Part shown: piece by piece, positions 6,509-26,514 of the stretch | Layout of the letters: each line of letters starts with the position of its first letter | Position numbering within the stretch: the first letter of the stretch is position 1 | NCBI GenBank assembly: GCA_963710685.1 | Contig: CAVQBH010000014.1 | Span: 16,724 to 80,723, forward strand | From: an uncultured Methanomassiliicoccales archaeon | GTDB taxonomy: Archaea; Thermoplasmatota; Thermoplasmata; Methanomassiliicoccales; UBA472 | Direction of reading: 5' to 3' | Length of the DNA stretch: 64,000 nucleotides | Notes under the pieces: generated by a model | The model's input: only the letters and a program-made list of their open reading frames with translations | Told to the model about the DNA's origin: nothing | The model's database searches: none | Position numbers and translations under genes: made by a program

Positions 6509-7122
6509 ACGCGAGCCCAGCCGAAGAACCCATCGCTCAAACCGCAACCGCTCAGCCCGTCACCCGCATGGGGACCAGGCACTGGGTCTTCATCGGCTCA
6601 ATGGTCGCGCTCGACTTCGCCACCGGCCAGCTCATCAAGTCCATCCTCCACGCCTCGGGGATTAGCAATTTCATCCGCCTTGACATGTTCATCCCGGTGA
6701 CCCTCTGGATGCTCACCCGGCTGGTCGTGGACCGCTTCGGCGTCCTCACCGCCTATCAATTCGCCTGGGGCGTGCTCGCCATCTTCGCCTTCCCCGGCGC
6801 AATGCTGCCCGGCCCCCTCAAGCTCATTCCCGCCGTCATGCAGGGCCTCATTCACGATGCCGGCTTCTCCCTGCTGCCCCGTTACCCTCGTGGGCGGGTT
6901 TTCGTCTCCGCCGTTGTCGGCGGCCTCGTCAGCAAAATCGTCGTCACCGCCCTGCGCGTCCAGGTCCTCGGCCTCCCGTGGACCAAAGTCACGCAGGCTC
7001 TGTTCGGCGTCCAGGCCCTGACTTCCATCCTCGTTAGCGCCGCGGCGGCCGGGTTGGCGCTGGTCGTATGGTCTCGCATCCGCAATCTGCACATCACCCG
7101 CTTGATGAGCGTTCGGGCCTGA
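6505..7122 (+). CDS. Putative ECF transporter S-component (integral membrane)
   Basis: About 205 aa with 5-6 TM segments, directly upstream of the duplicated ABC ATPase and EcfT. Confidence 0.65.
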   Translation: MNASPAEEPIAQTATAQPVTRMGTRHWVFIGSMVALDFATGQLIKSILHASGISNFIRLDMFIPVTLWMLTRLVVDRFGVLTAYQFAWGVLAIFAFPGAMLPGPLKLIPAVMQGLIHDAGFSLLPRYPRGRVFVSAVVGGLVSKIVVTALRVQVLGLPWTKVTQALFGVQALTSILVSAAAAGLALVVWSRIRNLHITRLMSVRA

Positions 7123-8518
7123 TCCGCACCTGGCAGTTGGCCTTCCAGCCCGCCGGCGCCGACGCCCCGCTCCTCCAGGACATCTCCCTCCACATCGAGG
7201 CGGGCGAGCGCGTCGGCATCATCGGCCCTTCAGGGTCGGGCAAGACTACTCTCGCCCTCCACCTCGCCGGCCTCCACCACGTCGCACTGCTCGGCCGCAG
7301 CTCTGGCTCCCTCTGGCTCCAGGGCCGCGACTGCACCTGCTCCGGCTCTGAAGGCTTCGCCGGCGTCGTCCTCCAAAACCCCGAAATCCAGCTCTTCGGC
7401 GAAACCGTTGAAGAGGAAGTTTCCCTCAGCCTCCAACAACAGCCTGCCGACGTTGACCGCCAGAGCGAACTGCGCCGTTGGCTCGACCTCTTCGGCCTCG
7501 ACACCGTGCGCGACCGCCGCGTAGCAACGCTCTCGCTGGGCTGGAAACAACGCCTCTCCATCGCCAGCATGTTGGCGCTCGAACCCAAGGTCCTCTTGCT
7601 CGACGAACCCACCAGCTACCTCGACGAGCCTACCGCCGACCTCCTTTTCGACCTGCTCGCCGTCCAGTCCAAGAACGCCGGCCTCACCGTCCTCGTCATC
7701 GAGCATGACCTTCCCCGCCTCACCCGCTGGGCTTCGCGCCTGGTGGCCATGCGCCAGGGCCGCATCGCCTTCGACGGCCCGCCGGCAAACTACTCGCCAC
7801 CCCAACCCCTCGCCCCGCCCCACCGCGTCTCCGAGCCGCCGCGCTCCCCTGCGCCGCCAACTCCCTCCTCTCGCTCGAAGGAGTCACCTTTGCCTACAAC
7901 GGCCACGGAACTGCGCTCGACAACGTCTCGCTCTCCGTGGCGCCGGGTGAGATCGTCGCCTTGGTCGGCCCGAACGGCTCCGGCAAAAGCACCCTGCTCA
8001 ACCTCGCCAAGGGCCTCCTTGAACCCGACCAGGGACGAATCTCCTGCGGCTCCGCGGCCCCGCGCATGGATGCCGTCGGCCTCGTGTTCCAGAACCCCGA
8101 CAGCCAAATCTTCGCCCACTCTGTCTTCGAGGAGTGCTCGTTCCTGCCTCGCAATCAGAACTTCCCACCGGACGAGGTCACCACTCGCACCCGGCAGGCC
8201 CTGACCCAGGTGGGGTTGCAGTCGCATGAAGACCGGGCCCCCTTTTCACTCAGCTACGGCGAAAAGCGGCGCCTCACCCTCGCCTCGACCCTGTCAGGGC
8301 GCTCCACCGTGCTCTGCCTCGACGAGCCCACCGTCGGACTCGACCGCGATTGCCTCGCCCAGGTGGCTGCCACCCTCAACCATGTCAGCGCCCAGGGCTC
8401 AGGCGTCCTGCTCGCAACCCATGATCACGAATTCGTCCGCGCCGTGGCCACTCGCGTCGTGTCGCTCCGCGCCGGCCGCATCGTGAGCGACACCGGCCCG
8501 CAAGGAGGCATCGTATGA
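7119..8518 (+). CDS. ECF transporter duplicated ATPase (EcfA-A' fusion), apparent frameshift near 7880
   Basis: Two NBDs: GPSGSGKT/LQNP/LSLGWKQR/LLDEPT and GPNGSGKS/FQNP/LSYGEKRR/LDEPT, split over two frames. Start uncertain. Confidence 0.85.
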
Positions 8519-9222
8519 CCCGCCCGCTGGTGGACCAGGCTCAACCTCCTGACCCGGCTGACACTGTTCCTGGTGCTCTGCCTGCACGCCGCCACGGGAC
8601 ACCACTTCCTCCCCCAGTTGCTCCTCTGCTCCGGCCTTCTCCTTCTCCTGTTCGCCAGCGGAGTCGCCGGGCCGCATGCTCGGCTCCTCCTCTGGGCGCA
8701 CTTGCTGGGGCTGCCTGCCACCGTCCTTCTCTTCCTCGCCATCGGGTACGAAGACCGCCCGCTCCTTCTCCGGAGCCGTATCCTGGGGCCTGGTCGAAGC
8801 TCTCCGCTACGCCCTGCGCATTGAGTGTCTCCTCCTTGCCAACCTCCTCTTCATCGGCATCACCACCCCGTTGGAGATCATCTCCCTCTTCAACGCGCCC
8901 GTGGATCCCGCCCGCCGTCGGCACGCTCCTGTCCACTGCCGTGCGCTTCCTTCCCCTCTCCCTGGCCGAAGCCCGCCGCATCTACGACATTCAGCGCTGC
9001 CGTGGCCTGCGCCTGCGTCCCTGGGCTCCACAAAGCTGCCTCCCTGTCATAGTGCCCCTGTTCGTATCGCAAATGTGCCGAGCCCACGACACCTCCGTAA
9101 TGCTCGTCGTACGGCGCATTGCCACCGTCACCCGGGGCGCGTCGCCCTGCAAAGTTCGGCCTCGGCGGACCTGGTCCTTCTCGGACTCGCCCTCGCCTCC
9201 TGCCTCTCCTATCCTGCTATAA
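8515..9222 (+). CDS. ECF transmembrane component EcfT/CbiQ (several apparent frameshifts)
   Basis: TTP.EI, A.RFLP....EARRI..IQRCRG and PVIVPLF spread across frames. Confidence 0.75.
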   Translation: MTRPLVDQAQPPDPADTVPGALPARRHGTPLPPPVAPLLRPSPSPVRQRSRRAACSAPPLGALAGAACHRPSLPRHRVRRPPAPSPEPYPGAWSKLSATPCALSVSSLPTSSSSASPPRWRSSPSSTRPWIPPAVGTLLSTAVRFLPLSLAEARRIYDIQRCRGLRLRPWAPQSCLPVIVPLFVSQMCRAHDTSVMLVVRRIATVTRGASPCKVRPRRTWSFSDSPSPPASPILL

Positions 9223-10587: not shown

Positions 10588-11745
10588 TCATGCACTGATT
10601 TCGGCCAGGCGATGGGTGGGGGTGGGCTTGCCGGGGCGGAAGTGGTCCAGTAGGTGGAGCGATACCACAAGAGTGTCAAACGGGGTAGCCGCGGCCTGCA
10701 ACCCCTCGCGCACGGCTGTGCCGAGCACTTCGGGCGCTGCCTCTGCCCGCAGGTTGATCATCAACTGCCCACCCGTCACCGGCACGCCCAAGCGAGCCCC
10801 TGCCTCCGGGGCGACATCGCTGCGAACAATGTTAATGCTGGCGACTTTGCCGCCACCGTCGTCCGGCACCAGTGTCATCTTCAGGTGGGCGATTTCTGCT
10901 TTGGCGGCGCAGAGGCGGTTGCGTAATTGGACCGCCAGCTCCAGCAGGAACAGGTCACCGTTAAACTTCTTCCTGGCCGCCAGCCGTGCCGTGCAGTTTG
11001 ACCAGCCCAGCCGCGCTTCGCCATCGGCATACACCTCGTAATCAACCTGCATCGCCCGGCCGGAGCGCTGTTCCTCGCGGGTGATCCTTTCGAACCACGC
11101 CTCCAAATTCGTGCTTTCGCGTGCTGACACGGCCAGGATCTCCTTGCGGGGGAAAGTGGCCGCGATGGCTTCCCGCAAAGACGCCAGCCGCCGCTCGTCC
11201 AACAGATCGCACTTGCTGATGACGATCAGGTCCGCCTCCTCAATTTGCTTCTGGTAAATGTAAAGCACCTTGTCGGAGAAGGTGCCGCCGGGCTCGACGC
11301 CGAAGGAGCGCAACGCCCGAACAGGATCCACCAGCACGCTGACCGGCGCGACCGTGAGGTTCGCGCCATGCAGCCGCCGCAGCGGGTAGGCCACGGTTGC
11401 GACCAGGTCGGTGCAACTGCCGACCGGCTCGGCAATGAAAACGTCAGGCCGGCTCCGCTGCGCCAGCTTGCGCGCGGCTTCCACCAACGCGTCGAACCGG
11501 CAGCAGAAACAGCCGCCGGGGATTTCTTCGGTCCGGAAGCCCTGGCAACGCAGCAGCGTCGTGTCAACGAGGTTACGGCCCTGGTCATTGGTGATGAGGC
11601 CCACCCGCAGGCCCTGGCGTGTAAGATGCGCGGCCAGACGACCCACGGCGGTAGTCTTGCCCGCACCCAGGAAGCCTCCGATCATGATGTAGCGAGGCTT
11701 GGGGGACCCCGCCGCCGTTCCTGGTTGAAATTCGGATGCTTTCAC
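10588..11745 (-). CDS. CobW/HypB/UreG-family (G3E) GTPase metallochaperone
   Basis: GGFLGAGKTT, ITNDQG, GGCFCC, EPVGSCTD and SKCD. Start (GTG 11745) uncertain. Confidence 0.85.
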   Translation of the reverse strand: MKASEFQPGTAAGSPKPRYIMIGGFLGAGKTTAVGRLAAHLTRQGLRVGLITNDQGRNLVDTTLLRCQGFRTEEIPGGCFCCRFDALVEAARKLAQRSRPDVFIAEPVGSCTDLVATVAYPLRRLHGANLTVAPVSVLVDPVRALRSFGVEPGGTFSDKVLYIYQKQIEEADLIVISKCDLLDERRLASLREAIAATFPRKEILAVSARESTNLEAWFERITREEQRSGRAMQVDYEVYADGEARLGWSNCTARLAARKKFNGDLFLLELAVQLRNRLCAAKAEIAHLKMTLVPDDGGGKVASINIVRSDVAPEAGARLGVPVTGGQLMINLRAEAAPEVLGTAVREGLQAAATPFDTLVVSLHLLDHFRPGKPTPTHRLAEISA

Positions 11746-11809
11746 CGAGACCCGACGTTCGCTTCCTCGGCTGTTTTTAGTGATTTGCGCTCCGACCACG
11801 ATCTCCCTT

Positions 11810-13024
11810 TCAGCTCTCCGGCCGTAGGCACAAGTCCCGGCACATGCACACATTCAACCCGGAGGCCCCCGGTGGTTCCAGCTTATACCTCCTGAACAAC
11901 TCCACAAATCCCGCTCGCGCCCGCCGGTAGTAGTCCAGGCCCGGCGGCGTGGTGGAGCCTCGCACCGGCCGGAAGTGCGGCAACCACACCGAGAACAGCG
12001 GCACGATCCCCCGCTCCGCCACATATTTGGCTCCCGCCAGCAAGCTTTCCACCGGTTCCAGCCCAACCACAAACGCGCTGCACACCTTGTTCGGCCCGTG
12101 CCGCTGCGCCGCATATTCCAACGCCCGCAGTTGCTGCTCCCGTCCCACGTGTCGCGAAATACCCGGGCATGCTTCCGCAAAAATCGCCTTGTCCCACACG
12201 TTCAGGTCGTAAGCTACCCGGTCCACTCCGGCCGCAAACAGCGCATCCACCGCCGCCGGGTCCCGCGGCGCGCTCGTGTAAACGTAAATCTCCCCCGGGA
12301 TATCCTTCAGCCCCAGCCTTCGGTCAATGGCCTTCAGCACCTCCACCACCAACGGGACCTCCCCGCACGCCGAATCCACCTCCGACCCGCCCGTCAACTG
12401 CACATCCCGGATGCCTTCACTGCGCACCCCGTATTCCACCGCTTCGGCCACATCTTCCGCTGTCGCGATCGGCGGCAGCGGCTGGCCGGCCCGTTTCATG
12501 TCCAGCGTCATGTTTCCCTGGTAGCAGAAGTCACACGGCTGGCCACCCAGCGCAAACTGGCACGGCCAAAGATACGGAAAGGACACTACGTCCAGCCCTT
12601 GTAGCACCGCCATCAACTGGAAGGGAAATCCCTTGCTCGTGCTCCGCTCGTAAAAACTCGTCGCTGGCGGGAAGTCCACCTTCGTAACCGCCTTTCCACG
12701 ATACGTCAGCCACGGTTCGCCCGCCGCGTCCACCATCAGGCTGAAGTCCGCCCCCGGCCCAACGTGAAACATATGCGTCGGCACCCGTCCCGGCAGCACC
12801 AGGCAGTTGCAGCAGAATGGATGGTTGGTCGGCGCCAGCCGGTGCGTCCGACCAAACCTCTTTACTATCTCCTCCGGCACGTTAATCCCCCGTGTCAGGA
12901 GCAGGGTCTTCAAGTCGAACACGTCCACCGCCTGCTCACCCACTCCAAAGCGGCGGTGTTTCGCCCGAAAGGCCTCCAGATTCCCAATCTGCGGACCAGC
13001 CGTGCTTTTCTTACTCTCACTCAT
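11810..13024 (-). CDS. Radical SAM protein with extended CX8CX2C motif
   Basis: CQFALGGQPCDFC, LTGGS, VVGLEP and C-terminal CMCRDLC; resembles MSMEG_0568-like rSAM architecture. Confidence 0.8.
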   Translation of the reverse strand: MSESKKSTAGPQIGNLEAFRAKHRRFGVGEQAVDVFDLKTLLLTRGINVPEEIVKRFGRTHRLAPTNHPFCCNCLVLPGRVPTHMFHVGPGADFSLMVDAAGEPWLTYRGKAVTKVDFPPATSFYERSTSKGFPFQLMAVLQGLDVVSFPYLWPCQFALGGQPCDFCYQGNMTLDMKRAGQPLPPIATAEDVAEAVEYGVRSEGIRDVQLTGGSEVDSACGEVPLVVEVLKAIDRRLGLKDIPGEIYVYTSAPRDPAAVDALFAAGVDRVAYDLNVWDKAIFAEACPGISRHVGREQQLRALEYAAQRHGPNKVCSAFVVGLEPVESLLAGAKYVAERGIVPLFSVWLPHFRPVRGSTTPPGLDYYRRARAGFVELFRRYKLEPPGASGLNVCMCRDLCLRPES

Positions 13025-13607
13025 TCTGCCGTCCATCATAGCAACGAGGTTCCTCCGTGCAAGTTAAGCAGCCCGTGTCGTCCATGCCGACCTCCCGCAG
13101 TGCGATCATCCGTAAGACAGTTCCAACACCGACGAATTCCGGGTGCGCGGTTTTAACCGAGTGCAGACAGCAACGGCTTTGGAAACCGACTGGATGGCTT
13201 GCGAATGCGCCTCCAAAAAACACGCGTCCACCGACACGAGGGGGTGGAGCGGCCAGAACTGAATGCCGAGAGAGGGGACGCGAATGATCAGGCACCGGAA
13301 ACAGAAGCAGCCTCGAGAACTCATAAATCGCCAGGGCGATGCACGTTCCCGCGATGAGCAAAGCCAGCGCTATCATTAAAGGGTGACTTCCCTCCTTGCT
13401 CGAAAACTTCTCTTCAACTTTCTGGCTAGTTTCACTCGTGAACTGCGACTTTGGTTTAGCGCCTTTTCCAGCATCCCGCTCCCCCTCAGATGTGCCGCCG
13501 AGTTCGCGTAACTTCTTCCAGCCGAGCACTACGACGATAAGCCCCATGACGATAACAATCCCTCCAGCACCCCAATGCCATATCATAGTCAGCTTCACAG
13601 GCGTCAT
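13017..13607 (-). CDS. Small two-TM hypothetical membrane protein (3' end uncertain)
   Basis: Two hydrophobic stretches flank a charged loop; lower GC; begins just after the cobN-like stop. Confidence 0.4.
   Translation of the reverse strand: MTPVKLTMIWHWGAGGIVIVMGLIVVVLGWKKLRELGGTSEGERDAGKGAKPKSQFTSETSQKVEEKFSSKEGSHPLMIALALLIAGTCIALAIYEFSRLLLFPVPDHSRPLSRHSVLAAPPPRVGGRVFFGGAFASHPVGFQSRCCLHSVKTAHPEFVGVGTVLRMIALREVGMDDTGCLTCTEEPRCYDGRQNE
13035..13062 (-). promoter_or_regulatory. Sigma70-type promoter TTGCAC-N16-TATGAT for the rSAM-GTPase pair
   Basis: Read on the minus strand about 10 nt upstream of ATG 13024. Confidence 0.55.
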
Positions 13608-13618
13608 GCTAATAGAAA

Positions 13619-16600
13619 TTATCGTGGAGCAGAGTAAGGCGGTTGAATCTCGCCGGGCGTGGAAAACTTCGATGAGATCTTCTCTTCGAAAGCCGCCTTA
13701 CCTTGCCACCACCAGCCAACGGCAATCAGCACGCATGCTAACAATCCCACGAAAGCGCGTTCCGACCACCGCGACCTCGCGACCGAAGGACGTGGGACAG
13801 GACGCGGCTTCTCCTCCAACAGCCGCCCTTTCACGACGGGCGTGGCGTTCGCCGCGGAACGCGGCGAGGCGGGGATGGCAGAGGCTGGACTTGGCCCTGG
13901 CGCGGGCTGCCAGTCCGCGCGCCTGGCGACACGTTCCGTTTCGGCAGCGACGGCAGGAGCGAGCTCAGCGTCCGTCCGGCGCAACTGAGCAACTGTTTCA
14001 GGCGCGGGTTGCCAGTAACCCTTGTTGATAACTGTCAGCATTCGTTCAACCATCGCTTGGTAGGCTGCAAGATTTTCCGCGCTGCGAAATCTCTCCCGAA
14101 TCCCCAGGTCATAGCGGTCCAATACATAGGTCTCGAACATTTCCTGCCATTTGGCCGCGTCCACGGCCTCCGGCACGGCGACCTGCCAGCCCCACAAGTT
14201 GTCGGTCACCTGCCGGATCATGCGCGCGCCGGCGTAGCCCTCCTTAAGCATCGCCTCGATCCACTTTGGGTTCAGATAGCGCGCCCGCATTTCGCGGCCC
14301 ATGTATCGTTCGAGGGTGACTGTCTCACCCGACCTGGGGTTGCTCAGGTCCGCGACCAGCGTGTCCACCGGTTTGCCATTCACCTCGCGAACGGCCATCG
14401 CGGTGCCGCCGAGGTATTGGTAGAAATCGTCGCTATCAATGGCGCCATAGACGTTCGACGAACGGCTGTGGATCACACCCTTTGCGCCCTTGAGCGCCAG
14501 TCGCAGAACCGTTGGTGATAGATCGGCGTTGGTGCCTGCCGCTGCCCGCGCGCCCCAAAAGCCTTGTCCGAACAGATGGCTCATGCGGTTGAAAAAGACC
14601 GCCGCGACCTGCTGCTCGTTGGTCCAACTATCCGCTTGCTGGATGGCATGATCCAGCCCTGCGCCGTAAGTTCCTGAAGGCACACTGAACAACCGCACTG
14701 ATGCCAGACGCTCGGCCTCGACTGGCGATACCCCTTGTGCTTCAAGGGCTGTGCGAGCCGCCGCAATGTTCCGCAGCAAAGGGTTGTCCGCGCTGGTGTC
14801 GGTCTTTACCAAGGTCACGGCTTGGTCGAGCAAAAGCATCAAGTTAGGAAATAAATCACGGTATAGCCCTGAAGGAATCACGGTTACATCCACGCGACGG
14901 CGACCCAACTCAGCGGGTGGAATCAAGTGCAACCCTTGCACCCGGCCACGAGCATCCCAATTGGGGCGCACCCCCATGAGCGTGAGGATCTCCGCCTCCA
15001 TTACCCCTTCGTGCCGGCTCGTCTCCGTGCCCCAAAGGTTGAATACCAGCCGGTCAGGGAACTGGCCATCGTGCCGTTTGCGATACGACGCGATGAGATC
15101 CACCGCCATCCGCGAGCCCGCAGCAAAAGTCGCCGCCGTCGGCAGCCGTGCTGGGTCGAAGCCATAGAAGTTCTTTCCCGTGGGCAATGCGTCTGGGTTG
15201 CGGATAGGGTCGTTTCCCGGTCCCGGCCAGGATGTAACGCCCGGCCAACCCAGCCGAAAGCGCATCCAATTCCGCCTGGGCTGAGGCTTCGATTCGTGCC
15301 ATCAACTCCGCTTTGCGCCTGGCGTGTTCTCCCGGAGACAGGTCGGGTTCGAGCGAGAGGATCGCTTCCGCTGTTGCCGCCCGCTTTGGCTCGTCGGGTG
15401 CGACGCCCAGCGTGTGCATGCCGAATGGCGTCATGCGTTCGCCAATCTTTCGGACGTGGTGCTCGATCTCCTCAATTTGATCGTCGTTCAACGACGCCCC
15501 AGGCGCGAGCGTAATGTCCAGGTCCTTGAAAAGCCCGCGCCGCTCGCAACGTTGCGCCAGCTCGCGAACCAGCTCGTCCCTGGCCGGCGAGCCTTTGTCC
15601 CGGGCGACGTGGTAATCGTTGATGAGTCCCGCAATCGCGTGGAGTTCCGGGCTCAAGCTCGCCCGATCCAGCGGCGGCGGCAGATGCGTGATGATGGCTG
15701 CCATCGCGCGGCGTTTGGCCTGCAGACCCTCCCCAACGTCGTCCACGATGAACGGATAAAACTGCGGCACAGCGCCGACCAGAACCTCGCCCGTGTCGGC
15801 GGCGGTGAAACCGACCTCCTTGCCCGGCAGCCATTCGTGGGTGGCGTGCGTGCCGACATGCACCATCGCATCGGCGTGAAAGTTCTTTTGCAGCCAGAGA
15901 TAGAAAGCGAGGTATTGATGATGCGGCGGCAGAGTTACGTCGTGGTAGATCGCCTCTATGTCCTGATCCCAGCCGCGCGTGGGCTGTGGGCCAAAAGCCA
16001 CGTTCCCCCAGCGCAGAATAGGCAGCACGAAGAACGGCGTCCCCGACGCATCTCGCCACACCATGACTTTGCTCTGCTCCGGTTCGCCCCACTTGGCCAC
16101 GATTTGCGCGCGCAAAGGCGCCGGCGCCTGATCGAACCATTGGCGGTATTCCGACATCGGGACCAGTTGGACGCGCCCCGAACGGGCCAATTGGTCGAGC
16201 TCCGTCGCGACGTTCGTGCCCGGTGTGGGGTTGTTCCCAAAGGTGCGGATAGCGGTGAACAGTTCGTCCGCGTTGGTGGGCGCACCGTCCGCAGCGAAAC
16301 CATCGGCCCGGAGCCGGTTGAGGATTTGCAGCAACGACTGCGGCAGCACGTTCAGATAGGAGGCGCCGATGGTTTCGCGTCCCGGCGGATAGTTGTAGTA
16401 GATCACGGCCACCCGTTTGTTGGCGGGTGGTTCGTGGCGCAAACGCACGAACGCCTGCACCCGATCGGCCAGGCGCTCGACCCGTTCGGCAATCGGCATC
16501 GTCATTACGTAAGTTTGGCCGGTGGCAACGTCCACGAGCTTTTCCTTGGAGGCGACAATGGTGGGCGCCACAGCACCCGCCAGTTCCGCGCTGCCGATCT

Positions 16601-17537
16601 GCCAGGAACGCTCGATGAAATCCAGACCGGAGGCGGAGCGTTCCCATTCGGCACGGCTTTGACTGTTCAGCGCGACGGCGTTGAGAATCGGCACGTCGAG
16701 CTGTGCCAGCAGCGGCGCCAGCTTGTCCGGAACATTACCGATTTTGAGCGTCAATCCGACCAGCGCTTCGATGCGGGGGTGGCCATTGGTACCGAGGAAC
16801 AAGAGCGGTAAGGCTGCGTGGCTCGGATAACCAAACCCGAACAGCGCATTAAACCCGCGCAGGTCCAAGGCGGTGTTGAGGGCGGACAACAACTCGGTCT
16901 GGCCGGACGTGGCGGTGTCGCGCGAGAAATACACCCCAATCCAGGGGCGCCTCTGGCGATCCGCTGCCCCGGCCAGATAGGCGGCGGCATAGTCCTCAAA
17001 TCGCGCGAATGCTCGACGGCCAGTGGGTTCGAAGAAGCCGAATTCCGGGAAGGGGGAAGGCGCGATCAAGTGCAAGCCGGGCTTGTAGTGCCGTGCGAGC
17101 GCGGCGCGCACAAGTTGTACCAGATTGGCCTGCCCACCCGCATCGAAGCAGGCTGCGAGTTCTGCATCGCGCTTGAACCCTAGGTCGGCAAACTCCGGGT
17201 CCAGTGTGCCGCCGACTCCCGCCAGCCAAGCGCCATGTGCCGAGGCGGCCTGAATTTCCGCCGCGAGCGCTCGCAGTAACGCACCGTAACGGGTGTAGCC
17301 GACTATAATGTCGCTTTTGCGAATGAACTGGCGGTCATTGTCGTCGAGTTCGACCCGCGGGAACGCCCGGACGGTAACATCGCTCAACTCGGGGTCCCGC
17401 CGCAACTCAGTGATGGCGCCAATGGCCGCGGCCGACTGTGCATCGCCTGTGAGCAGAGCAACCCTCACTTGGACAGCGTCTGAAGCGGTAACACTGAGGC
17501 AGCCGAGGCAAACGAGCAATGGAGTGAGGAACTTCAC
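13619..17537 (-). CDS. cobN: CobN/ChlH-family (HmuS-like) chelatase/dechelatase with signal peptide and C-terminal TM; frameshift near 15225
   Basis: YYNYPPG, PPHHQY, HVGTHATHEWLPGK, DPIRNPDALPTGKNFY, SGLYRD, RYLNPKWIEAM..GYAGA; formed by joining ORFs 15054-17576 and 13619-15265. Confidence 0.9.
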
Positions 17538-17544
17538 GCCACGC

Positions 17545-17907
17545 TCATTTGGGTTTTGTTTCTTCGTCCGGCACATAGACGACTTGGCCGTTGGCGAGGC
17601 GATAGGCCGTGCCGAGGCGTATGCCCTGGCCGGAGAGTGTCTTGTCGGTGACCTTCTGCACCTTAATCTGAGCTCCGTGCTTGGTGATGATCTCCATCTC
17701 GCCGGACTCGGTCTGCTTGACGAGCGTTACGTTGGACTTCTTGTCGAGCAATGTGCCGGACGAAAACAGGGCAAACAGCGCGATCAGCAGCGCGACGATG
17801 AACGCCACGCTCACATCGAACAGATTCGCGATGCCAGCCAGCGGGTCCTCGTCATGCCCTGGCGCCGGGCCGTGAGCCGAAATCCGATGCCGCTGAACGA
17901 AGCGCAT
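17545..17907 (-). CDS. DUF2149 protein (HmuV-like)
   Basis: EDPLAGIANLFDVSVAFIVAL and G.RLGTAYRL.NG.VVYVP. Confidence 0.9.
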   Translation of the reverse strand: MRFVQRHRISAHGPAPGHDEDPLAGIANLFDVSVAFIVALLIALFALFSSGTLLDKKSNVTLVKQTESGEMEIITKHGAQIKVQKVTDKTLSGQGIRLGTAYRLANGQVVYVPDEETKPK

Positions 17908-17910
17908 GGC

Positions 17911-18465
17911 TTACTCCTTTCCGTTGGCTTGGCGCAGGACGCGCTCGGCATGAAACGCAAGCGCCTGCGAGTCAGCGCGCACCCAGCTTTCGCGGGCGGC
18001 GGCAATCAGGTAGGCGGCTACGCTGATAGTCAGGCCAATGACCGTCGCGGCAAAAGCCGTGACCATGTTGCTGGCGAGCGCCGGCAGGTTGCCCTCAGCC
18101 AAACCCTGAAGCGCATCCGCCATCGGGATGAGCGTGCCCATCAGCCCCAGCGAAGGCCCCACGCGCACCGCCAGCCGCAAGCGCCCGAGAGCGCGCCACT
18201 GCTCCCGCTCGGTGTTTTGCAGACATTCTTCGAGCCGGAGATCCAGTCCCTCACCCGGCTGGGCGGCCGCGAGTTGATCCAGCGCTTTCTGCGCCCGCTC
18301 CAAAGCCCGCCGGCGACCGGAACGGCGATCCCACGCCTCACGCAGAAATGCGCCCAGGGCCACTAGCATGGCGGCCATCAAGCCGAGCAACCCCAGCAGC
18401 ACCGGCCAGACGAGAAAGGCAGCGATGTGATGAAACAATTCCCGAAGTTGATCAACGGCAGTCAT
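17911..18465 (-). CDS. MotA/TolQ/ExbB proton-channel family protein (HmuU-like)
   Basis: GPSLGLMGTLIPM and AFAATVIGL. Confidence 0.9.
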   Translation of the reverse strand: MTAVDQLRELFHHIAAFLVWPVLLGLLGLMAAMLVALGAFLREAWDRRSGRRRALERAQKALDQLAAAQPGEGLDLRLEECLQNTEREQWRALGRLRLAVRVGPSLGLMGTLIPMADALQGLAEGNLPALASNMVTAFAATVIGLTISVAAYLIAAARESWVRADSQALAFHAERVLRQANGKE

Positions 18466-18519
18466 GGGTAGTTCGATTTAGGCGATGTACTGCCAGGTGG
18501 CAGAGGAATTTAACCGAGG

Positions 18520-20811
18520 TCATTGGGTTTTCGCACGGTAAAAGCGGGTAGCACTATTGGTCACTGCGCCATCTGTAAATGTCATCGTGCCGCTGGTGCT
18601 GGTGAAATTGGTAACGGCACTCCAAGCGGCAGGCGACAGGTTGGTGGTGGATTCAATCGAATAATTTCCCAGCGTCGGGCCGGACCATGTCAGATGCGCG
18701 CCAGTGGCGTTGATGCCGGTGATGGCCAATTGTCCTGCCGTGCTGGGACTGGTGACGGCCAAGACGGCAAATTGCGGACGCAGGCTGGTTTCTTGGGGGG
18801 CAGGCACGTCCGCACCCACGGAGAAAGTGACGGCGTTGGTGGCAACCAGATTGGTCACGCTAAAGGTCACAACGCTGGGGCCGTAGTTGGCGATGCTCGT
18901 GTTCCACTGCGCAACGTCGTCGCCGCCGTATTGAACGCCGTTGAAGTAGAGACGGTCGTTCTGGCCGGTGTCGCCGTAGGTGTAAAGCGCGGTGAGCGTG
19001 GCGTTGGTCGCGTTCGCGGGATTGACCGGCGCGAACACGGCGATGCGCTGGCTGACTTCGCCCGATGCTGGCGAGCCGTAAATATCGCCGCTGCCCTCGG
19101 CAATCGAGTAAGCAAAAGCATTGGTCAACGCGCTGCTTTGATAAACGGCTGCGAGTGCGACGTATTGGATGCGTCCGTCAAAACTGTCCGGCGTCGTTTC
19201 GGTCACGCTGATGGTGTTGGGCGTGCCGTTGGTGAAAAGCATTCCCGCCGGAATGGGCATGGCCACCAGCCAGACGCCGTAGCCGGAGCCGTAAGCGCAA
19301 GGCGCGTCGCTGCTGAACAGGGCGTTCAAGTCGCCCGTGGTGCCGAACACGAACGGGTTTGCCACCGGCAAATTGGTGCCGTTCACTGTCACTGTCATGT
19401 CGCAGGTGTAATCATGCGTTCCGCCCCAAACCGTCATGAGCAGCCGGCTGGCGACGATGCGGTTGCAGGCCGGCATGGTCATGGTTTCCTGGTAGGTGTA
19501 AGGCAGGCTGGGCGCGACGTTCGGCCAAGTGTCAATGTTCGTCCAGAACAGACCGCCGTTGGCGATGTTGCCCGCAAGCACGTTGGTCATGCCCAATCCG
19601 CCAAAGGCAAAGCCACCCACGCCCATTGAAAACACCGTGCCGGAATTGTTTATGCCGCCGCTGGAAGTCCAGCCATAAAGCGTGTTGTTGGTGTAAGCCA
19701 GGTCACCATCAGGATTGGCTCCATCCGGGCCGGTGAAACTGTGAAGGATGCTGAAGCCGGTGCCATCAAGACCAATCTTGAACAACGTGCCGACGTTGGA
19801 ACTGCCGCCAATTTTGGTCGTGCCCACGAGAAAGGAACCGACCGAAGTCAGTGCGCCATTGGGATTGGCACCGTTGGTTGCGCCGCCGGTGAAGTTAAAC
19901 AAAACGCTGTAACCGCTGCCGTCGGTATTCAACGAATAAATGGTGCCCAAGTTCGCCGTGCCGCCAACGCGCGTCATGCCGTAAAATCTTGAACCGACCA
20001 ACGTCAACCCGCCGTAGGGGTTCGCGCCGTTGGTCGTGCCGCCGGTGAAGTTGACCAGATTGGTGTAGCCGCTGCCGTCGGGGTTGACGCTGAAAACCAC
20101 GCCATCATTGCCGGTGCCGATCAAGCTGCCGGTTCCTCCATGCACGGTCGTGCCGTAGAGCACGCCATTGTTCAGCAAGAGCGAGCCGCCCAACGGTCGC
20201 GAGCCGTCATTCGTTCCGCCAAGAAAAGTGTGCAAGTTGGTAAAGCCGCCACCGCTGGTGGGAAGCGAATAAATCGAACCGACGCCTGTGCCAGTGCCGT
20301 AGTAGGTCATTCCGTAAAGCGCGGAACCATCAACAATCACGGCACCGTAGGGTTTGTAGCCGGTGCTGGTGGTAAAGCTGTGCAAGTTTTGATAACCCGA
20401 GCCGTCCGCATCAACCGAAAAAACGGTGCCGTAGCCGGTTGTGCCATTGCCGCCGCCGCCGTAGTAGGTCGTGCCGTAAAGCGTCGAGCCGCTCAAGGCC
20501 AGCGAGCCGAGCGGTTGGTAGCCGTCGGGCGCAACGTTGGTGAACGTGTGCAGAACGGCGAAACCGGTGCCATCCATGTTGACTGAAAACACCACGCCGC
20601 CGCCCGCCGCGCCTTGATTAACCGTGCCGTAAATCGTCGAACCGGAAATGACCGGCGCGCCATAATACGGATTGGCTCCGTCCGCGCCGCCGGTAAAGGA
20701 GTGGAGCACGCTAAATTGGGCAAAAACGGTGCCGCCGCTCATCGCCAACACTGCGACCGCCAATTTGAGAATTGAACTTCTATTTAGTTTCGTTGTTTTG
20801 ACGTATTTCAT
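18520..20811 (-). CDS. Secreted protein: GloVer tandem-repeat propeller + DUF3344-like domain + C-terminal FYR domain
   Basis: Signal peptide; seven LH.FTGG..GA.P...LYG.T..GG repeats; then SRL..TVWGG, GSGYGVW, FDGRIQYVAL.AVY and AEG (DUF3344-like); ends YSIESTTNL..W...RFYRA. Confidence 0.75.
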   Translation of the reverse strand: MKYVKTTKLNRSSILKLAVAVLAMSGGTVFAQFSVLHSFTGGADGANPYYGAPVISGSTIYGTVNQGAAGGGVVFSVNMDGTGFAVLHTFTNVAPDGYQPLGSLALSGSTLYGTTYYGGGGNGTTGYGTVFSVDADGSGYQNLHSFTTSTGYKPYGAVIVDGSALYGMTYYGTGTGVGSIYSLPTSGGGFTNLHTFLGGTNDGSRPLGGSLLLNNGVLYGTTVHGGTGSLIGTGNDGVVFSVNPDGSGYTNLVNFTGGTTNGANPYGGLTLVGSRFYGMTRVGGTANLGTIYSLNTDGSGYSVLFNFTGGATNGANPNGALTSVGSFLVGTTKIGGSSNVGTLFKIGLDGTGFSILHSFTGPDGANPDGDLAYTNNTLYGWTSSGGINNSGTVFSMGVGGFAFGGLGMTNVLAGNIANGGLFWTNIDTWPNVAPSLPYTYQETMTMPACNRIVASRLLMTVWGGTHDYTCDMTVTVNGTNLPVANPFVFGTTGDLNALFSSDAPCAYGSGYGVWLVAMPIPAGMLFTNGTPNTISVTETTPDSFDGRIQYVALAAVYQSSALTNAFAYSIAEGSGDIYGSPASGEVSQRIAVFAPVNPANATNATLTALYTYGDTGQNDRLYFNGVQYGGDDVAQWNTSIANYGPSVVTFSVTNLVATNAVTFSVGADVPAPQETSLRPQFAVLAVTSPSTAGQLAITGINATGAHLTWSGPTLGNYSIESTTNLSPAAWSAVTNFTSTSGTMTFTDGAVTNSATRFYRAKTQ
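19620..20720 (-). repeat. Seven ~50-55-aa protein-level GloVer repeats
   Basis: Repeat anchors LHSFTGG, LHTFTNV, LHSFTTS, LHTFLGG, LVNFTGG, LFNFTGG and LHSFTGP. Confidence 0.8.
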
Positions 20812-20837
20812 AAATGATTTAACGGTGTGGGAGTGAT

Positions 20838-21515
20838 TTATTGGGAAGCGTCCCATTCGTTTTGGGTGGTGATTGTTTTGAATTCGACGTGGTCGTCGCA
20901 ATACGCGGCCACAAAACCCTTCTTCGAGTGGCGATAATCCACATACGGAACCGGGTTGGTGAACGAACTGCCGCTGCCGCACCAGTAATCGCCCGGCGTG
21001 CAATCCCCATAAATAATGGTGCCCGAAGGATGGCGAATGTTGTTCGCTTGAACGCCATACCAGAAGCAATAAGCGTTACCCGCGAAGTTGAACGTGTTGA
21101 TGCCGTAGCTCAAAAAGATGTTCGTGTCCCAGGTCACGGGAATCTTTTTCAAATCCGAAGGGCACAGATAGACGCCGGAAGTTTTGCCAATGAATGGCTT
21201 CAACAAATCCATCCAGCGCGTGGTGGAATCAATCCAAGCCGGCGGGTAACTCTTGGCTTCATCCACGTACATCTGGGTGGCCAACCCGATTTGCCGGAGA
21301 TTGCTTTCGCAGCCTGCGCGTTTACCGCGTTCTTTCGCATTCGCCAATGCGGGCAACAGCAACGCGGCCAAAATCGCAATGATGGCGATGACCACCAGCA
21401 GTTCAATCAGCGTGAACGCCGCCTCTCCTCGATGCTGACCCAGGCAATGCGCATCCTTGCTCCAGGCTCTTAACGGTCTGCCTGGATGCAGCGGCTCTGC
21501 CCACGGTGCTTTCAT
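20838..21515 (-). CDS. Prepilin-type N-terminal cleavage/methylation protein (DUF1559/H-X9-DG type)
   Basis: [39 protein letters not shown] and RH....AAYCDDHVE. Confidence 0.9.
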
Positions 21516-21516
21516 G

Positions 21517-21562
21517 AGATTACGAATATATGAAATCGTAATACTGGCATCTCTGCCGTCAA
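21517..21562 (-). promoter_or_regulatory. Promoter TTGACG-N16-TACGAT overlapped by a 28-bp NikR-type operator (AGATTAC-N14-GTAATAC, 21517-21544)
   Basis: Perfect inner inverted repeat ATTACGA-N10-TCGTAAT at 21519-21542, adjacent to the divergent nikR. Confidence 0.75.
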
Positions 21563-21629
21563 GCCCATTCGAAAAAAGACCGCAATGCTGCAAAACGCCC
21601 CCATGCGGCGAACCTTGCTTGGAACCAGT

Positions 21630-21657
21630 TTGACACATCCTGTATGGTGCCTACCAT
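21630..21657 (+). promoter_or_regulatory. nikR promoter TTGACA-N16-TACCAT
   Basis: Consensus -35 hexamer; the -10 lies about 20 nt before ATG 21678. Confidence 0.6.
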
Positions 21658-21677
21658 TGCCGAGGAACTGTCACGCC

Positions 21678-22106
21678 ATGAAGCAAGAATTGGTTGAGCG
21701 GTTCACCGTGTCGGTGCCGGCGGCGCTTCTGCGCCAGTTTGACGGCATGGTGAACCAGAAGGGATACGAGAATCGTTCGCAGGCTATCGCCGATCAGATG
21801 CGCGACGCCCTCGTCGAGCACCAGCAAGAGTACGGCTCCGGCGAAATTGCCGGCACCATTACGCTCCTTTACGACCATCACAAGCAGCACGTCCAAGCAA
21901 CTCTCACCGACATCCAGCATGACCACCATGAGGTGATCGTCTCTACCCTCCACGTCCATCTCGACCACCATAATTGCCTGGAGGTCCTCGTCGTGCGCGG
22001 CCAGGCCAAAACCGTCAAGAAGATCGCCGACGAACTGATCGCCGCCAAGGGCGTTAAACATGGCAAGCTTACGGTCACCTCCACTGGCAAGGACCTTCCG
22101 GGCTGA
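21678..22106 (+). CDS. nikR: Nickel-responsive regulator NikR
   Basis: Ribbon-helix-helix RFTVS..GYENRS; YDHH; QH; HVHLDHHNCLEV; KGVKHGKL. Confidence 0.95.
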   Translation: MKQELVERFTVSVPAALLRQFDGMVNQKGYENRSQAIADQMRDALVEHQQEYGSGEIAGTITLLYDHHKQHVQATLTDIQHDHHEVIVSTLHVHLDHHNCLEVLVVRGQAKTVKKIADELIAAKGVKHGKLTVTSTGKDLPG

Positions 22107-22379: not shown

Positions 22380-23113
22380 ATGAACAAGAACACTTGATTC
22401 GCTCACCCGACGTGAGGCTATCCGACGCACTGCGCTCCTGAGCGGCCGTGGCGAGCTTTTGCTCCGCGGCTTTCCGTCGCATTCCGGCGCGGAACCGCCG
22501 GGGGCCTTTTCTCTGCCGCCGCTCGGCTATGCATTCGATGCGCTCGAACCTTACATCGACGCCCAGACGATGCAGATTCATCACGACAAGCACCACGCCG
22601 CCTACGTCGCCAACCTGAACAAGGCCTTGACCGAAGCACCTACGCTTCCGGCAAGCCCATCGAGTCCATCTTCCGCGACCTTGAAGGCGTTCCCGAACCA
22701 ATCCGCACCGCCGTGCGCAACAACGGTGGGGGCCATGCCAACCATTCGTTTTTCTGGCCGCAACTCAAGAACAACCAAGGGCATGGTCCTTCAGGCGAAC
22801 TGGCCAGGGCCATAGACAGCAGGTTTGCCGGCTTTGCCGGGTTTCAGCGCCAGTTCACCGAGGCAGCCACCAAGCAGTTTGGGAGTGGCTGGGCATGGCT
22901 CACGATTAGCGCCGACAAGCAACTTGCGGTTGAGTCCACGCCCAACCAGGACACGCCTCTGTCCAAAGGGCGCACGCCACTGCTTGGCATTGACGTTTGG
23001 GAGCACGCTTACTACCTCAAATACCAAAACCGCCGACCGGAATATATCGCGGCATTCTACGCGTTATCAATTGGGACGTAGTGGCTGACCGGTTCCAAAA
23101 GGCGACAGGCTGA
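22380..23113 (+). CDS. sodA: Mn/Fe superoxide dismutase with Tat-like signal (several apparent frameshifts)
   Basis: [36 protein letters not shown] and DVWEHAYY; TRREAI twin-Arg near the N-terminus. Confidence 0.9.
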
Positions 23114-23594: not shown

Positions 23595-23775
23595 TCTCCC
23601 ACTCTATTCCGGGCGTCGGTGTAGATACCGATTCCCAAAGTGCTCTGCTGATTGCCTCAGCAGGCAATTCCATGTTCGTGAGACCCGTTCTCAGCGCGTG
23701 GCGCATTGGCGCGCACACGGTGTAAACCAGAGCTTAGATACAAGATCAATTAAAAACCATAAAAGTAATCAAAAT

Positions 23776-24600
23776 ATGAAAAGTCAGATTAATTCGGCAG
23801 CCAAAACTAAATTGCGAAATCGTGTAGTCAATATTCTTGGATCCGCTGTGTTGGCGGGGTCTGTGCTCCCTGCTTCGGCCGACCTTTATCAAGTCACCGG
23901 CGGTTCAGTTTCGATGACAATCACGGAAGGCCTGGCCAGCAGCGTTGACAATTTTGACGCTTATTTTGACGCGACCGCCACCCGTGCCCAGACGCTCAGC
24001 GATCCGGCCCCGGGTAATGCGCCCTTCGCTGTTAATGGAGCGACTGTCACCGTGGTGGATCCGATTCGTCCCTACGGCGTTGTCCCCAGTCCGTACCCGG
24101 GCACTCCCGGTTCGACACGAAGCCCCCAGATGACAACACTCGAATTCGATTCCAACGATGTCCTTGGCAGTTGGAGTCTTTCCAATGACTCTTTTGGTTT
24201 TGTCGGAAATACGACACTGGGAGAGCAAATTGCGCTGACCAGTATGCAGCGCTGGACCGGGCCGTTCAGCGGCGCCTTGCTTTACGGTGATTTCGGACTT
24301 CGGCGGGTGTCGGCAACAGAGTTGGCGCTGACCAGCAACATTGACTTCCTGAATGCTGATTTCGCCGACATCGTAAACCCGACCATTTCAGTAACAGACG
24401 ATACGCTGACGATCAGCGGCGACCTGCTCATGGGCAATGGGCTTTACCTGTTGGACCCAAGCGTGGTGCCCGGCACCGATTTCGGTACGTTCACAATGAC
24501 CGCGGGGATAGCGGCCGTTCCGGAGCCATCTGCTCTAGCCCTGCTCGGTCTTGGCGCGGTGGTCCCGTTGCTGCGCCGCATCCCCAGGTTAAACCGCTAA
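23776..24600 (+). CDS. PEP-CTERM surface protein of unknown domain
   Basis: Signal peptide; C-terminal VPEPSAL + TM + RR; paralog of 24671-25714. Confidence 0.85.
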   Translation: MKSQINSAAKTKLRNRVVNILGSAVLAGSVLPASADLYQVTGGSVSMTITEGLASSVDNFDAYFDATATRAQTLSDPAPGNAPFAVNGATVTVVDPIRPYGVVPSPYPGTPGSTRSPQMTTLEFDSNDVLGSWSLSNDSFGFVGNTTLGEQIALTSMQRWTGPFSGALLYGDFGLRRVSATELALTSNIDFLNADFADIVNPTISVTDDTLTISGDLLMGNGLYLLDPSVVPGTDFGTFTMTAGIAAVPEPSALALLGLGAVVPLLRRIPRLNR

Positions 24601-24670: not shown

Positions 24671-25714
24671 ATGAAGCTGCGTTTGCCTTCGCTTATGGCG
24701 ATGTTCCCCATCGTCCTCGGCATGGCGATAAACTCCGCTCGCGCACTGACGATCACCGGTGGCACCGCTACCCTGACTCTGGAGGAGGGCAAAGCCGACA
24801 GTATTAGCTGGCTGGACGCCTATTTCAGCGACGCCAAAACCCGGGGGCAAACCCTGTCGGACCCAGCTCCGGGCGACGCACCGTATGTCCGTCTGTCGGG
24901 AACACCCGGCACCATCGGAACGGGCTCGACATCGGGTGTGCTGGGCGTTCCCGGGATCGTTCAGGTCACGGATACGATCCGCCCTTTCGGAGTGATTCCC
25001 ACCCCGCCAGCGCCGGACACCTATCCCGGCACCCCGGGGTCTTCACGCTCGAGGCAAGTCACGACGCTTGATTTTAGCCCGACCAACATTCTGGGCAGTT
25101 GGACCGCATCGACCGACCTGGTTGGCGTATTCGTCACCACCGACGCCTTGAGTGAGCAAATCGCTTTTACCTGTATGCAACGTTGGGGAGGGCCATTTAC
25201 TGGCGTGCTGATCTACGGCGATTTTGCCTTGCGTTACGTGCCCACCCGTGCGGGGACTGTGGCTCCGGGTGGAACCCTGTCGGGGCTGGCGATGGTAAGT
25301 AACATCGACTTCCTCGATTCATCCTGGGCCGACCTGGCCAATGCTTCCATCACTTTCAGCAACAATACGCTGAACATATCAGGCGACCTGTTGATTTCCG
25401 GCGCGCTCAACCTGCTTGACCCGACAGCGACGGTGGGAACGAAATTTGGAACGTTCAGCATGAACGCCACCGTCTTACTCCCCACTCCGCTCATCCATCG
25501 CTTCGCCAGGAATGGCGGCATGGTAACGTTAGAGGCCATGAATGGCCTGCCGAACGGCGGCTACACCGTGCTTTCCTCCACAAACCTCGCGCTGCCGCTC
25601 GCTGCCTGGAGTGTGAGCGCAACGGGCTCGTTCGACGCGAGCGGAACCTGTTCAAACTCCATTCCAACACTGCCGGGGGAAAGCGCACGATTCTTCCGGC
25701 TGCAGCAGCCGTGA
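24671..25714 (+). CDS. Secreted paralog of 23776-24600 with C-terminal FFRL domain
   Basis: Shares [37 protein letters not shown] and SNIDFL; ends [15 protein letters not shown]. Confidence 0.8.
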
Positions 25715-26514
25715 GTTCTGCGTTACAGGATCAAAGCCGGACCGTTGCTGCGGAAGTCCCCGGCGGCGGTCCGGGCTTGTGCCTGCGCGCATTCACCTTG
25801 ATCGAACTGCTCGTGGTCATCGCCGTCATTGCAATTCTGGCAGCGTTGCTATTGCCGGCTTTGGGCAAGGCAAAGCACCGTTCCAAGCGCACCGTCTGCC
25901 TGAACAATCTCCGGCAGATGACCCTCGCCGACACGATTTATTGCAACGACAACGGCCAATTGCCGGCGCCGAGCGACTACGTTCCGAGCAGCATTTCCGT
26001 CGCGCGGCTCACCCAAATGGCGCAGACCATCGGCATGACCGTGCCACCGGGTCCAGCCTCAGCGTGGCCGCCGCGCGCACAGCAACCACAGTGGTTCAAC
26101 TGTCCGCTGGCGACGGAATCCGGTTACGCCGAAGGGGTGACGCTCGGCGGCGGACTTTACACTGGTTATGTTTACGTCGGCGGCATCGAAAGATCCCAGA
26201 TGATCACGTTGGGGTTTGCCACGCTCGTAAACCCCGGCCAGGCAGCCGATTACAAAAACACCCGGCGCGGCGTCTTATGGGCTGACATTTTGGATGAGTA
26301 CCTCATGGCCGATCCACGCCGCTTTGAATATTTCCATCCCATCAAACAAATCAAATACCCTGATTTTCGCTTCGAGGCGAACGACCTCGAAGGCATCAAC
26401 CGCGCGTGGTCCGATGGCTCAGTGGAGTGGACAGGCGGCAAACGCCTCGACTTGACCGGTGCAAATAGTTCCGACCTGCGCATCAAACACATTCTCGGCA
26501 ACTACTACTTCTGA
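25711..26514 (+). CDS. Prepilin-type N-terminal cleavage/methylation protein (DUF1559/H-X9-DG-like)
   Basis: [36 protein letters not shown] and [13 protein letters not shown]. Confidence 0.9.

Follow-up and report, generated by a model that had tools for sequence, protein, structure and literature searches.

What is the function of an operon that carries a gene for a CobN-like protein and is divergent from the gene for the nickel regulator NikR? The question is raised by a 64,000-nucleotide stretch of contig CAVQBH010000014.1 (assembly GCA_963710685.1), here called the window, in which five tightly spaced minus-strand genes within positions 13619-22106 encode, by Pfam and NCBIfam matches, a pilin-like protein, a GloVer/DUF3344 protein, a MotA/ExbB protein, a DUF2149 protein and a CobN-family protein. 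The same unit had been singled out in an original prediction made from the sequence of the window, and its named genes, their tight spacing and their divergence from nikR are all as that prediction had them. In our assessment the operon serves nickel acquisition under scarcity and is controlled by NikR, with a probability of about 0.65. Membership of the NikR regulon in particular appears well supported for a computational claim, because recurring boxes, linkage to nikR, adjacency to nikMQO genes and the lack of a riboswitch can be taken together. The genes and regulatory sites of the locus are as follows.

20838-21515, minus strand: operon gene 1, a protein with a prepilin-type N_methyl segment and the start of a DUF1559 domain (N_methyl 2e-7, DUF1559 3.6e-8, TIGR02532)
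18520-20811, minus strand: secreted GloVer/DUF3344 protein with a signal peptide, seven GloVer repeats, DUF3344 and a C-terminal beta domain of about 70 amino acids (aa)
17911-18465, minus strand: predicted proton-channel protein of the MotA/TolQ/ExbB family, 184 aa (PF01618 1.8e-13, MotA_ExbB 50.8 bits)
17545-17907, minus strand: DUF2149 protein, 120 aa, the counterpart of HmuV (PF09919 3.7e-27)
13619-17576, minus strand: CobN/HmuS-superfamily protein of about 1,300 aa, predicted to be exported and C-terminally anchored (PF02514 3.6e-150 and 1.2e-134)
21678-22106, plus strand: nikR, 142 aa, divergent from the operon (NF003381 198 bits, cut-off 105; NikR_C 1.7e-33)
21517-21544, unstranded: NikR-type operator, a 28-bp inverted repeat, GTATTAC-N14-GTAATCT on the minus strand
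21535-21562, minus strand: operon promoter-like site TTGACG-16-TACGAT, 9 of 12 matches (consensus match only)
21630-21657, plus strand: nikR promoter-like site TTGACA-16-TACCAT, 10 of 12 matches (consensus match only)

From the pilin gene through the DUF3344, MotA and DUF2149 genes to the CobN-like gene, the intergenic distances are 26, 54 and 3 nt, and the last two genes overlap by 32 nt. The start of nikR is most likely the ATG at 21678, because in all NikR models the alignment starts at residue 37 of the open reading frame (ORF) that begins at 21585. Its product has the ribbon-helix-helix N terminus and NikR_C domain of a NikR. The nearest relative in the PDB is the nickel-responsive regulator 2bj1 (2.5e-48), and the residues aligned with H76, H87, H89 and C95 of E. 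coli NikR, which we take to be the nickel ligands of that protein, are H, H, H and C. The operator ends 1 nt short of the pilin ATG and has a core palindrome, ATTACGA-N10-TCGTAAT, at 21519-21542. It was read from the sequence; an automated inverted-repeat search with a minimum arm of 8 nt gave no match because the arms are 7 nt long. As had been predicted, the palindrome covers the -10 box of the operon: the TACGAT hexamer of the sole promoter-like site on that strand falls inside the 21517-21544 repeat. Its architecture is that of the published class of NikR signals, given for delta-proteobacteria as GTGTTAC-N13/14-GTAACAC (Rodionov et al. 2004, PMC545781), and the site departs from GTRTTAC-N14-GTAAYAC at two positions. 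Matches to this latter pattern with up to two mismatches number two in the window, against 0.12 expected, and ten in the 2.84-Mb genome. A search for riboswitches and other Rfam families found none in the window region (E up to 0.1) or in seven Verrucomicrobiota loci.

Related loci were collected by a scan of one genome per species and then by tblastn with the window proteins. The order pilin, DUF3344, MotA, DUF2149, CobN-like recurs in eight loci from metagenome-assembled genomes labelled Verrucomicrobiota (L015, L017-L021, L034 and L037), several of them labelled subdivision 3. Their CobN-like proteins are 69-80% identical to that of the window, and pilin orthologues (69-83% identity) stand first in each; the MotA-like protein is 78-90% identical in Verrucomicrobiota loci. 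Within the fetched DNA, nikR is present in eight of the ten loci of the window's Verrucomicrobiota clade, and its position varies: directly after the CobN-like gene (L015 and L016), divergent before the pilin gene (L018 and L020), between the DUF3344 and MotA genes (L034) or a few kb away (L017, L019 and L037). Genes for NikM (CbiM plus PDGLE), NikQ and NikO-type transporter components adjoin the cluster in L015, L017, L019 and L037, with nikM and nikQ confirmed by Pfam. The N14 pattern, again at up to two mismatches, has 13 matches in 1.29 Mb of related loci, and 11 of them fall in the ten loci of the window's clade, which hold 14% of that DNA. Six of these 11 lie within about 170 nt upstream of a pilin gene (L015, L018, L019, L021, L034 and L037), one stands before MotA in L034, and four form tandem pairs before nikM in L015 and L017; for these two loci, the nikM boxes and the pilin-operon box belong to one motif family. 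A Fur-box scan of the loci returned few matches, all with four mismatches, mostly intragenic and none upstream of a cassette. The predicted control by NikR, and hence the link to nickel, thus appears to be borne out by the published operator class, by its recurrence before orthologous operons and nikM, and by a nikR gene that travels with the cluster.

The CobN-like protein is encoded by two overlapping minus-strand ORFs, 15054-17576 and 13619-15265, which cover profile positions 3-603 and 696-1089; the genome contains one CobN-family gene and one DUF2149 gene. Hydropathy indicates a signal-like hydrophobic N-terminal segment and a C-terminal membrane helix, in agreement with the export and anchoring first proposed. 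When compared with solved structures, the C-terminal half scores 257 bits with HmuS and 207 with M. tuberculosis CobN, whereas the N-terminal half is slightly nearer CobN (198 bits, against 171 for HmuS). With the best CobN equivalog, NF004644, the halves score 387 and 461 bits, below its cut-off of 1248. We constructed a maximum likelihood tree from 420 C-terminal columns and 81 rows (quick search, with support from the Shimodaira-Hasegawa-like approximate likelihood ratio test only), and the protein was placed in a superclade of 67 rows (100% support, stem 0.87) that holds most of the MotA/DUF2149-linked proteins. Among these is a Bacteroidia protein with the exact HmuS motifs, which served as the HmuS anchor (L097, from genome G074, one of two matches among 61 genomes from the class of Chitinophaga G041). 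Within the superclade, the window protein falls in a clade of 23 rows together with proteins from Opitutaceae, Pirellula, alpha- and beta-proteobacteria and Sphingobacterium. The protein shares this MotA/DUF2149-linked superclade with HmuS, and canonical CobN (Streptomyces, Rubrobacter and the window's own order) falls outside it; HmuS itself forms a separate long branch within the superclade.

The superfamily histidine motif of domain III (H-F-G-(T/A)-H-G, HmuS His-538) is present as HVGTHA. The domain V motif LSLDHxxEFMGG reads AIDSDDFYQYLGG in the window protein and is of the CobN/cobaltochelatase type, with HmuS His-1209 and Glu-1212 replaced by Asp and Gln; a motif of this D-x-DD type occurs across most of the window's clade and its sister clade, and the true HmuS motif was seen only in L097. 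In a phmmer alignment, HmuS Ser-1014, Ser-1067, Gln-1198, Ser-1199 and Trp-1202 correspond to G, S, S, S and Y, so that two of the five are kept. [quoted passage not shown] The Met-rich insertion of HmuS domain IV (about 120 residues) has no room, as HmuS 701-951 corresponds to about 40 residues here, and the protein has at most eight Met in any 120-aa stretch. Given the changed domain V motif and the missing insertion, membership of the HmuS family was rejected, and with it the original view of the protein as HmuS-type.

The DUF2149 protein has one N-terminal membrane helix (residues 29-47) and is ExbD-like in size. In the GloVer/DUF3344 protein, TIGR03803 matches seven stretches at 1.3e-48, and the DUF3344 domain at the C terminus (5.2e-15, 56 bits) is visible only when that part is scanned alone, the Pfam scan of the full-length product having missed it; the orthologues are mostly about 410-420 aa long and consist of the DUF3344 part only. 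An AlphaFold2 model of the DUF3344 protein is all-beta, with a predicted local distance difference test score of 89. A fold search with this model against the PDB returned generic jelly-rolls only (PNGase F, BcsB and capsid proteins, at template-modelling scores of 0.25 or less), gave no functional lead and produced no HmuY-like match.

A different arrangement is seen where the cassette lacks the pilin gene. TonB-dependent receptor genes flank the MotA-DUF2149-CobN genes in all five of the nearest non-pilin loci tested, as listed here.

L029:4325-6631: TonB-dependent receptor gene
L030:5424-7691: TonB-dependent receptor gene
L031:5938-8250: TonB-dependent receptor gene
L033:4486-6822: TonB-dependent receptor gene
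L035:4458-6758: TonB-dependent receptor gene

In the Verrucomicrobiota clade the receptor position is taken by the DUF1559 pilin-like and DUF3344 genes, in what looks like a module swap; Pirellula has a full DUF1559 gene after its CobN-like gene. Isolates with the receptor-type cassette include Rhodoblastus acidophilus DSM 142 and Sphingobacterium endophyticum NYYP31. The sister clade comprises 36 rows, mostly Desulfobacterota, in which the cassette occurs with DUF2162, a BtuF-type binding protein (Peripla_BP_2) and CbiK. Cobalamin riboswitches precede the clusters in 15 of the 19 sister-clade loci scanned, some of the other four being cut at the operon start.

L036, L039-L046, L048, L050 and L052-L055: riboswitch-bearing loci (for example L048:2995-3203 and 13104-13309)

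The exported CobN systems of Desulfobacterota and their allies therefore appear to be B12-controlled. Eight loci of the window's clade and one Chitinophaga locus yielded no cobalamin riboswitch. These Desulfobacterota-type clusters (L036-L055) share the MotA-DUF2149 pair with the window, but differ from it in their DUF2162, Peripla_BP_2 and CbiK genes and often in having two CobN-like paralogues, and they contain neither nikR nor an N14 match to the NikR pattern at up to two mismatches.

HmuS is reported to remove iron from haem and to be the only family member with proven activity (Nath et al. 2025, PMC12583661). The hmuS, hmuU and hmuV genes of P. gingivalis are annotated as CobN, MotA-family and DUF2149 genes (PMC11681262), so the likening of the window's trio to HmuS/U/V in the original prediction agrees with that annotation table. 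As in the window, HmuS-HmuT-HmuU-HmuV of the Bacteroidota hmuYRSTUV operon (PDB 9d26) combines a CobN-superfamily protein, a MotA/ExbB protein and a DUF2149 protein in one operon, and HmuS, as described, resembles the window protein in having hydrophobic segments at both ends, as well as in its superclade. The two operons differ in gene order, and the window has pilin-like and DUF3344 genes instead of the HmuY hemophore and HmuR receptor; moreover, the window cassette lies beside nikR with a NikR box, whereas the hmu operon answers to haem or iron. The P. aeruginosa operon PA1922-PA1925 (receptor, CobN-like, ExbB/D-like and hypothetical) is reported to be Zur-regulated and to rise 45- to 147-fold on zinc depletion (PMC4542158), and its role is described as still open in the 2025 literature (PMC13083405). 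By that description it resembles the window in a CobN-like protein, a MotA/ExbB-type partner, a small hypothetical protein and a response to starvation for a metal other than iron, but it has a TonB-dependent receptor and answers through Zur to zinc, unlike the NikR- and nickel-linked window; PA1923 is not part of the tree. A third precedent is archaeal: in Methanothermobacter marburgensis, CobN1, termed a 'possible metal-chelating protein', and a NikR homologue are reported to reach high levels only when nickel is limiting (PMC12350162). CobN1 is likened to the window protein by annotation and by nickel-limited production only. As a lead only, the locus tags of the induced 'transporter' MTBMA_c10530 and of CobN-like c10550-10570 lie close together.

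Other described systems can be compared part by part. The NikR-NikMNQO regulon has the same regulator family and operator architecture, but the window targets are not a known nickel transporter. Class I CobN shares the Pfam family, the DSDD-aromatic-aromatic-Q-aromatic-x-GG motif and a WGT motif, yet is cytoplasmic and works with CobS and CobT, whereas the window protein is predicted to be exported and membrane-anchored, and in the tree it groups with none of the canonical CobN clades. The ORFs scanned at about 4.7-27.4 kb include no gene for a ChlI/D- or CobS/T-type ATPase, although no whole-genome search for CobS/T was made; the original statement that such ATPases are absent from the neighbourhood holds to this extent, but a COG0523-type GTPase gene, described below, does lie at 10588-11853. 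Set beside TonB-ExbB-ExbD, the cluster has a MotA_ExbB domain, a DUF2149 protein with the size and single N-terminal helix of an ExbD but no BLAST similarity to one, and no TonB gene. Because homologous cassettes stand under Zur and under cobalamin riboswitches, and because CobN1 is nickel-limited in a methanogen that makes F430, the CobN-like/MotA/DUF2149 cassette presents itself as a general metal-starvation device. The full text of the literature searched, which did not cover Rodionov et al. 2006 or the supplements of the key papers, contained no CobN-like cassette under NikR control, nor one that includes a pilin/DUF3344 module.

In the mechanism that we propose, NikR from the neighbouring gene would bind the 28-bp operator over the -10 box at high nickel and block transcription, and at low nickel its release would allow the operon to be made. 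The exported CobN-like protein, tethered to the inner membrane through a Pro-rich linker and the C-terminal helix, would then most likely strip Ni(II) from a tightly bound environmental complex, or capture Ni(II), in the periplasm, a step proposed by analogy with the removal of iron from haem by HmuS. The MotA/DUF2149 pair could couple stripping, capture or an entry step to the proton gradient, while the pilin-like DUF1559 and DUF3344 proteins presumably replace a TonB-dependent receptor as the outer capture or entry module, and freed nickel would be handed to the NikMQO importer. Of these steps, dechelation by the CobN-like protein is put forward tentatively, as a possibility that we hold to be somewhat doubtful. 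A broader version, which we consider unlikely, would make the cassette a general periplasmic metal extractor driven by the proton-motive force, with its sensor swapped by phylum. In Bacteroidota it would serve haem iron, in Pseudomonas zinc through Zur, in Desulfobacterota cobalt or a corrinoid through the B12 riboswitch, and in the window nickel through NikR. In Verrucomicrobiota it would harvest very stable natural nickel complexes (e.g. F430-derived or other Ni-tetrapyrroles) in methanogenic peat by pilin-like/DUF3344 entry in place of a TonB-dependent receptor.

Several observations weigh against nickel acquisition under NikR. The case for it is wholly computational. The active-site motif, DSDD..Q..GG, is of cobaltochelatase type and the sister clade is B12-controlled, which leaves room for a cobalt or corrinoid substrate. 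The right half of the window operator is weak (GTAATCT), no plausible second copy, as the exact palindrome or with up to two changes, was found in the 2.84-Mb genome, and the site before the genome's own nikM is only partly operator-like. In the related loci, the pilin promoters of L017 and L020, two of the eight, lack a box at up to two mismatches. On the side of the motor, BLAST of the DUF2149 protein against an ExbD gave no alignment, and the cluster contains no TonB gene. With this query, none of 40 relatives of the source genome yielded an orthologue of the cluster (best match 33% identity), and a CobN-family match of any kind was found in only five of the 40, at 33% identity or less. Because the cluster was not found in these relatives, it is probably an accessory, acquired trait. 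Finally, the CobN-like gene is split over two overlapping frames in this assembly.

The operon might serve cobalt, a corrinoid or haem, with nikR a mere neighbour and the palindrome regulating something else or nothing. The DSDD motif shared with cobaltochelatases, the riboswitches, BtuF-like and CbiK genes of the sister clade, and an operator that is imperfect and unique in the genome would all fit such an arrangement. It is nevertheless very unlikely, as nikR stays with the cluster through several rearrangements, the box recurs before six of eight orthologous pilin genes and before nikM, no riboswitch was detected in the window region or the seven Verrucomicrobiota loci, and the few Fur-box matches lie elsewhere than upstream of the cassette. 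Granting nickel, there could still be no dechelation chemistry: the CobN-like protein may only bind Ni(II) with high affinity in the periplasm and hand it over, with MotA/DUF2149 powering passage across the outer membrane as ExbB/ExbD does, the entry module being pilin/DUF3344 here and a TonB-dependent receptor in the sister loci. This explanation gains from the receptors that flank all five sister loci tested, from the reading of the Zur-regulated PA1922-25 genes as a metal-uptake route (PMC4542158), from the wording used for CobN1 (PMC12350162) and from the COG0523 genes found close to the cassette (window, L028 and L030). We think it possible but rather unlikely, since a chelatase fold of 1,300 aa that keeps its central-cleft histidine is large for simple ion binding, the sole family member reported to have proven activity acts on a tetrapyrrole, the DUF2149 protein is not detectably ExbD-like and TonB is missing from the cluster.

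Alternatively, the CobN-like protein could be a periplasmic nickel-tetrapyrrole dechelatase that acts on F430 or its breakdown products from neighbouring methanogens, with the proton-motive force in place of the class I ATPase subunits. HmuS of the same superclade is reported to take iron from haem, and its authors raise F430 when discussing archaeal homologues (PMC12583661). The superfamily histidine of the H-x-G-T-H motif is kept, and the sequence occurs in wetland and peat metagenomes (13 runs with at least one fifth of the sampled words), with relatives about 93-97% identical. DUF3344 clusters in the ESM Atlas are mostly from Methanobacteriota, although their scores lie below 0.9 and make this a lead only. 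Yet of the HmuS residues, S1014, Q1198, W1202, H1209 and E1212 read G, S, Y, D and Q here, the haem-site Met-rich insertion is missing, and the Verrucomicrobiota clusters carry no tetrapyrrole importer of the kind (BtuF-like binding protein or CbiK) that accompanies the cassette in the B12-controlled sister clade. In addition, homologous cassettes are reported to answer to zinc (PMC4542158), a metal without a common tetrapyrrole source, and nickel limitation is reported to induce a CobN-like protein (PMC12350162) in a methanogen able to synthesize F430 itself. These zinc- and nickel-limitation precedents indicate that the data do not require a tetrapyrrole substrate, and we regard a nickel-tetrapyrrole dechelatase of this kind as quite improbable.

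The split in the CobN-like gene raises the separate possibility that the insertion is real, the gene a recent pseudogene and the system dead in this strain. The window has one extra base, in a short G/C run near 15222-15226, relative to L013, a 5.4-kb contig that is 98% identical and has the frame intact. The base is missing from six of six bridging metagenome contigs from four wetland runs (X1-X4); these contigs are about 93-97% identical, hence from related strains, and are not a test of this one. The orthologues in related loci are all in a single frame. Both halves of the window gene are full-length and carry no other stops or signs of decay. A gene for Fe/Mn superoxide dismutase at 22459-23081 (plus strand), 0.4 kb past nikR, is likewise split, its N- and C-terminal domains lying in different frames, and two frame breaks within 8 kb are suggestive of assembly indel errors. 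Although two overlapping ORFs in different frames are what a recent pseudogene would leave, we consider that origin improbable, and an indel introduced in assembly is the likeliest cause of the frame break.

In wetlands, nickel is limiting for hydrogenases, urease and methanogenesis, and bacteria are known to take it up through only a few types of transporter. A NikR-controlled cassette of the HmuS/PA1923 type would, if the reading is correct, add a new route, and would provide a common logic for the zinc-regulated Pseudomonas operon and many 'orphan CobN' genes as the same machine under other metal sensors. The apparent replacement of the receptor by DUF1559 and DUF3344 proteins would also provide a rare starting point for assigning functions to two very large, uncharacterized families in Planctomycetota and Verrucomicrobiota.

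Immediately downstream of the CobN-like gene, three further genes are found on the same strand.

13017-13607, minus strand: two-helix membrane protein, 196 aa, after an 11-nt gap from the CobN-like gene
11810-13039, minus strand: variant radical SAM protein (NF045502 2.1e-58), with a 23-nt overlap
10588-11853, minus strand: COG0523-type (CobW/HypB/UreG-type) GTPase with a CxCC motif (cobW domain 4.5e-25), with a 44-nt overlap

The GTPase gene lies 1.8 kb downstream of the CobN-like gene. Because the trio at 10588-13607 is shared only with the near-identical L013, and not with other Verrucomicrobiota loci, it ranks as only a possible lineage-specific extension of the operon. COG0523 metallochaperone genes also lie a few kb from the cassette at L028:4143-5375 (CobW plus CobW_C) and L030:2874-4109, both proteobacterial. 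A Fur/Zur-family gene that had been considered beside the L028 cassette was not borne out by Pfam, which confirmed the COG0523 gene alone. Farther out in the window, an ATP-binding cassette ATPase and a CbiQ-like gene at 7068-9222 resemble a module of an energy-coupling factor transporter, and the flanks at 4701-5561, 25711-26514 and 23698-24600 (plus strand) contain two more prepilin-type (N_methyl) genes and one PEP-CTERM protein.

Elsewhere in the genome, large subunits of NiFe-hydrogenase and a urease alpha gene supply the nickel sinks that the original prediction had called for. Allowing N13 and N15 spacers adds six matches to the NikR pattern, and none of the resulting 16 is clearly promoter-linked save that of the window, the context of two having been left unannotated. 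These two, G000:C13:20957-20983 and G000:C8:75136-75163, have one and two mismatches, respectively, and about 3 kb separate the former from the urease alpha gene (C13:17771-18133). The genome also has a NikM-type gene (G000:C14:152126-153034), with a second nikR (149453-149884) downstream in its operon. About 190 nt upstream of this nikM is a site like the window operator on one half only. Judged by reading of their N-terminal sequences, ORFs near the second nikR (G000:C14:146003-153034) resemble hemL, hemC and a uroporphyrinogen methyltransferase gene.

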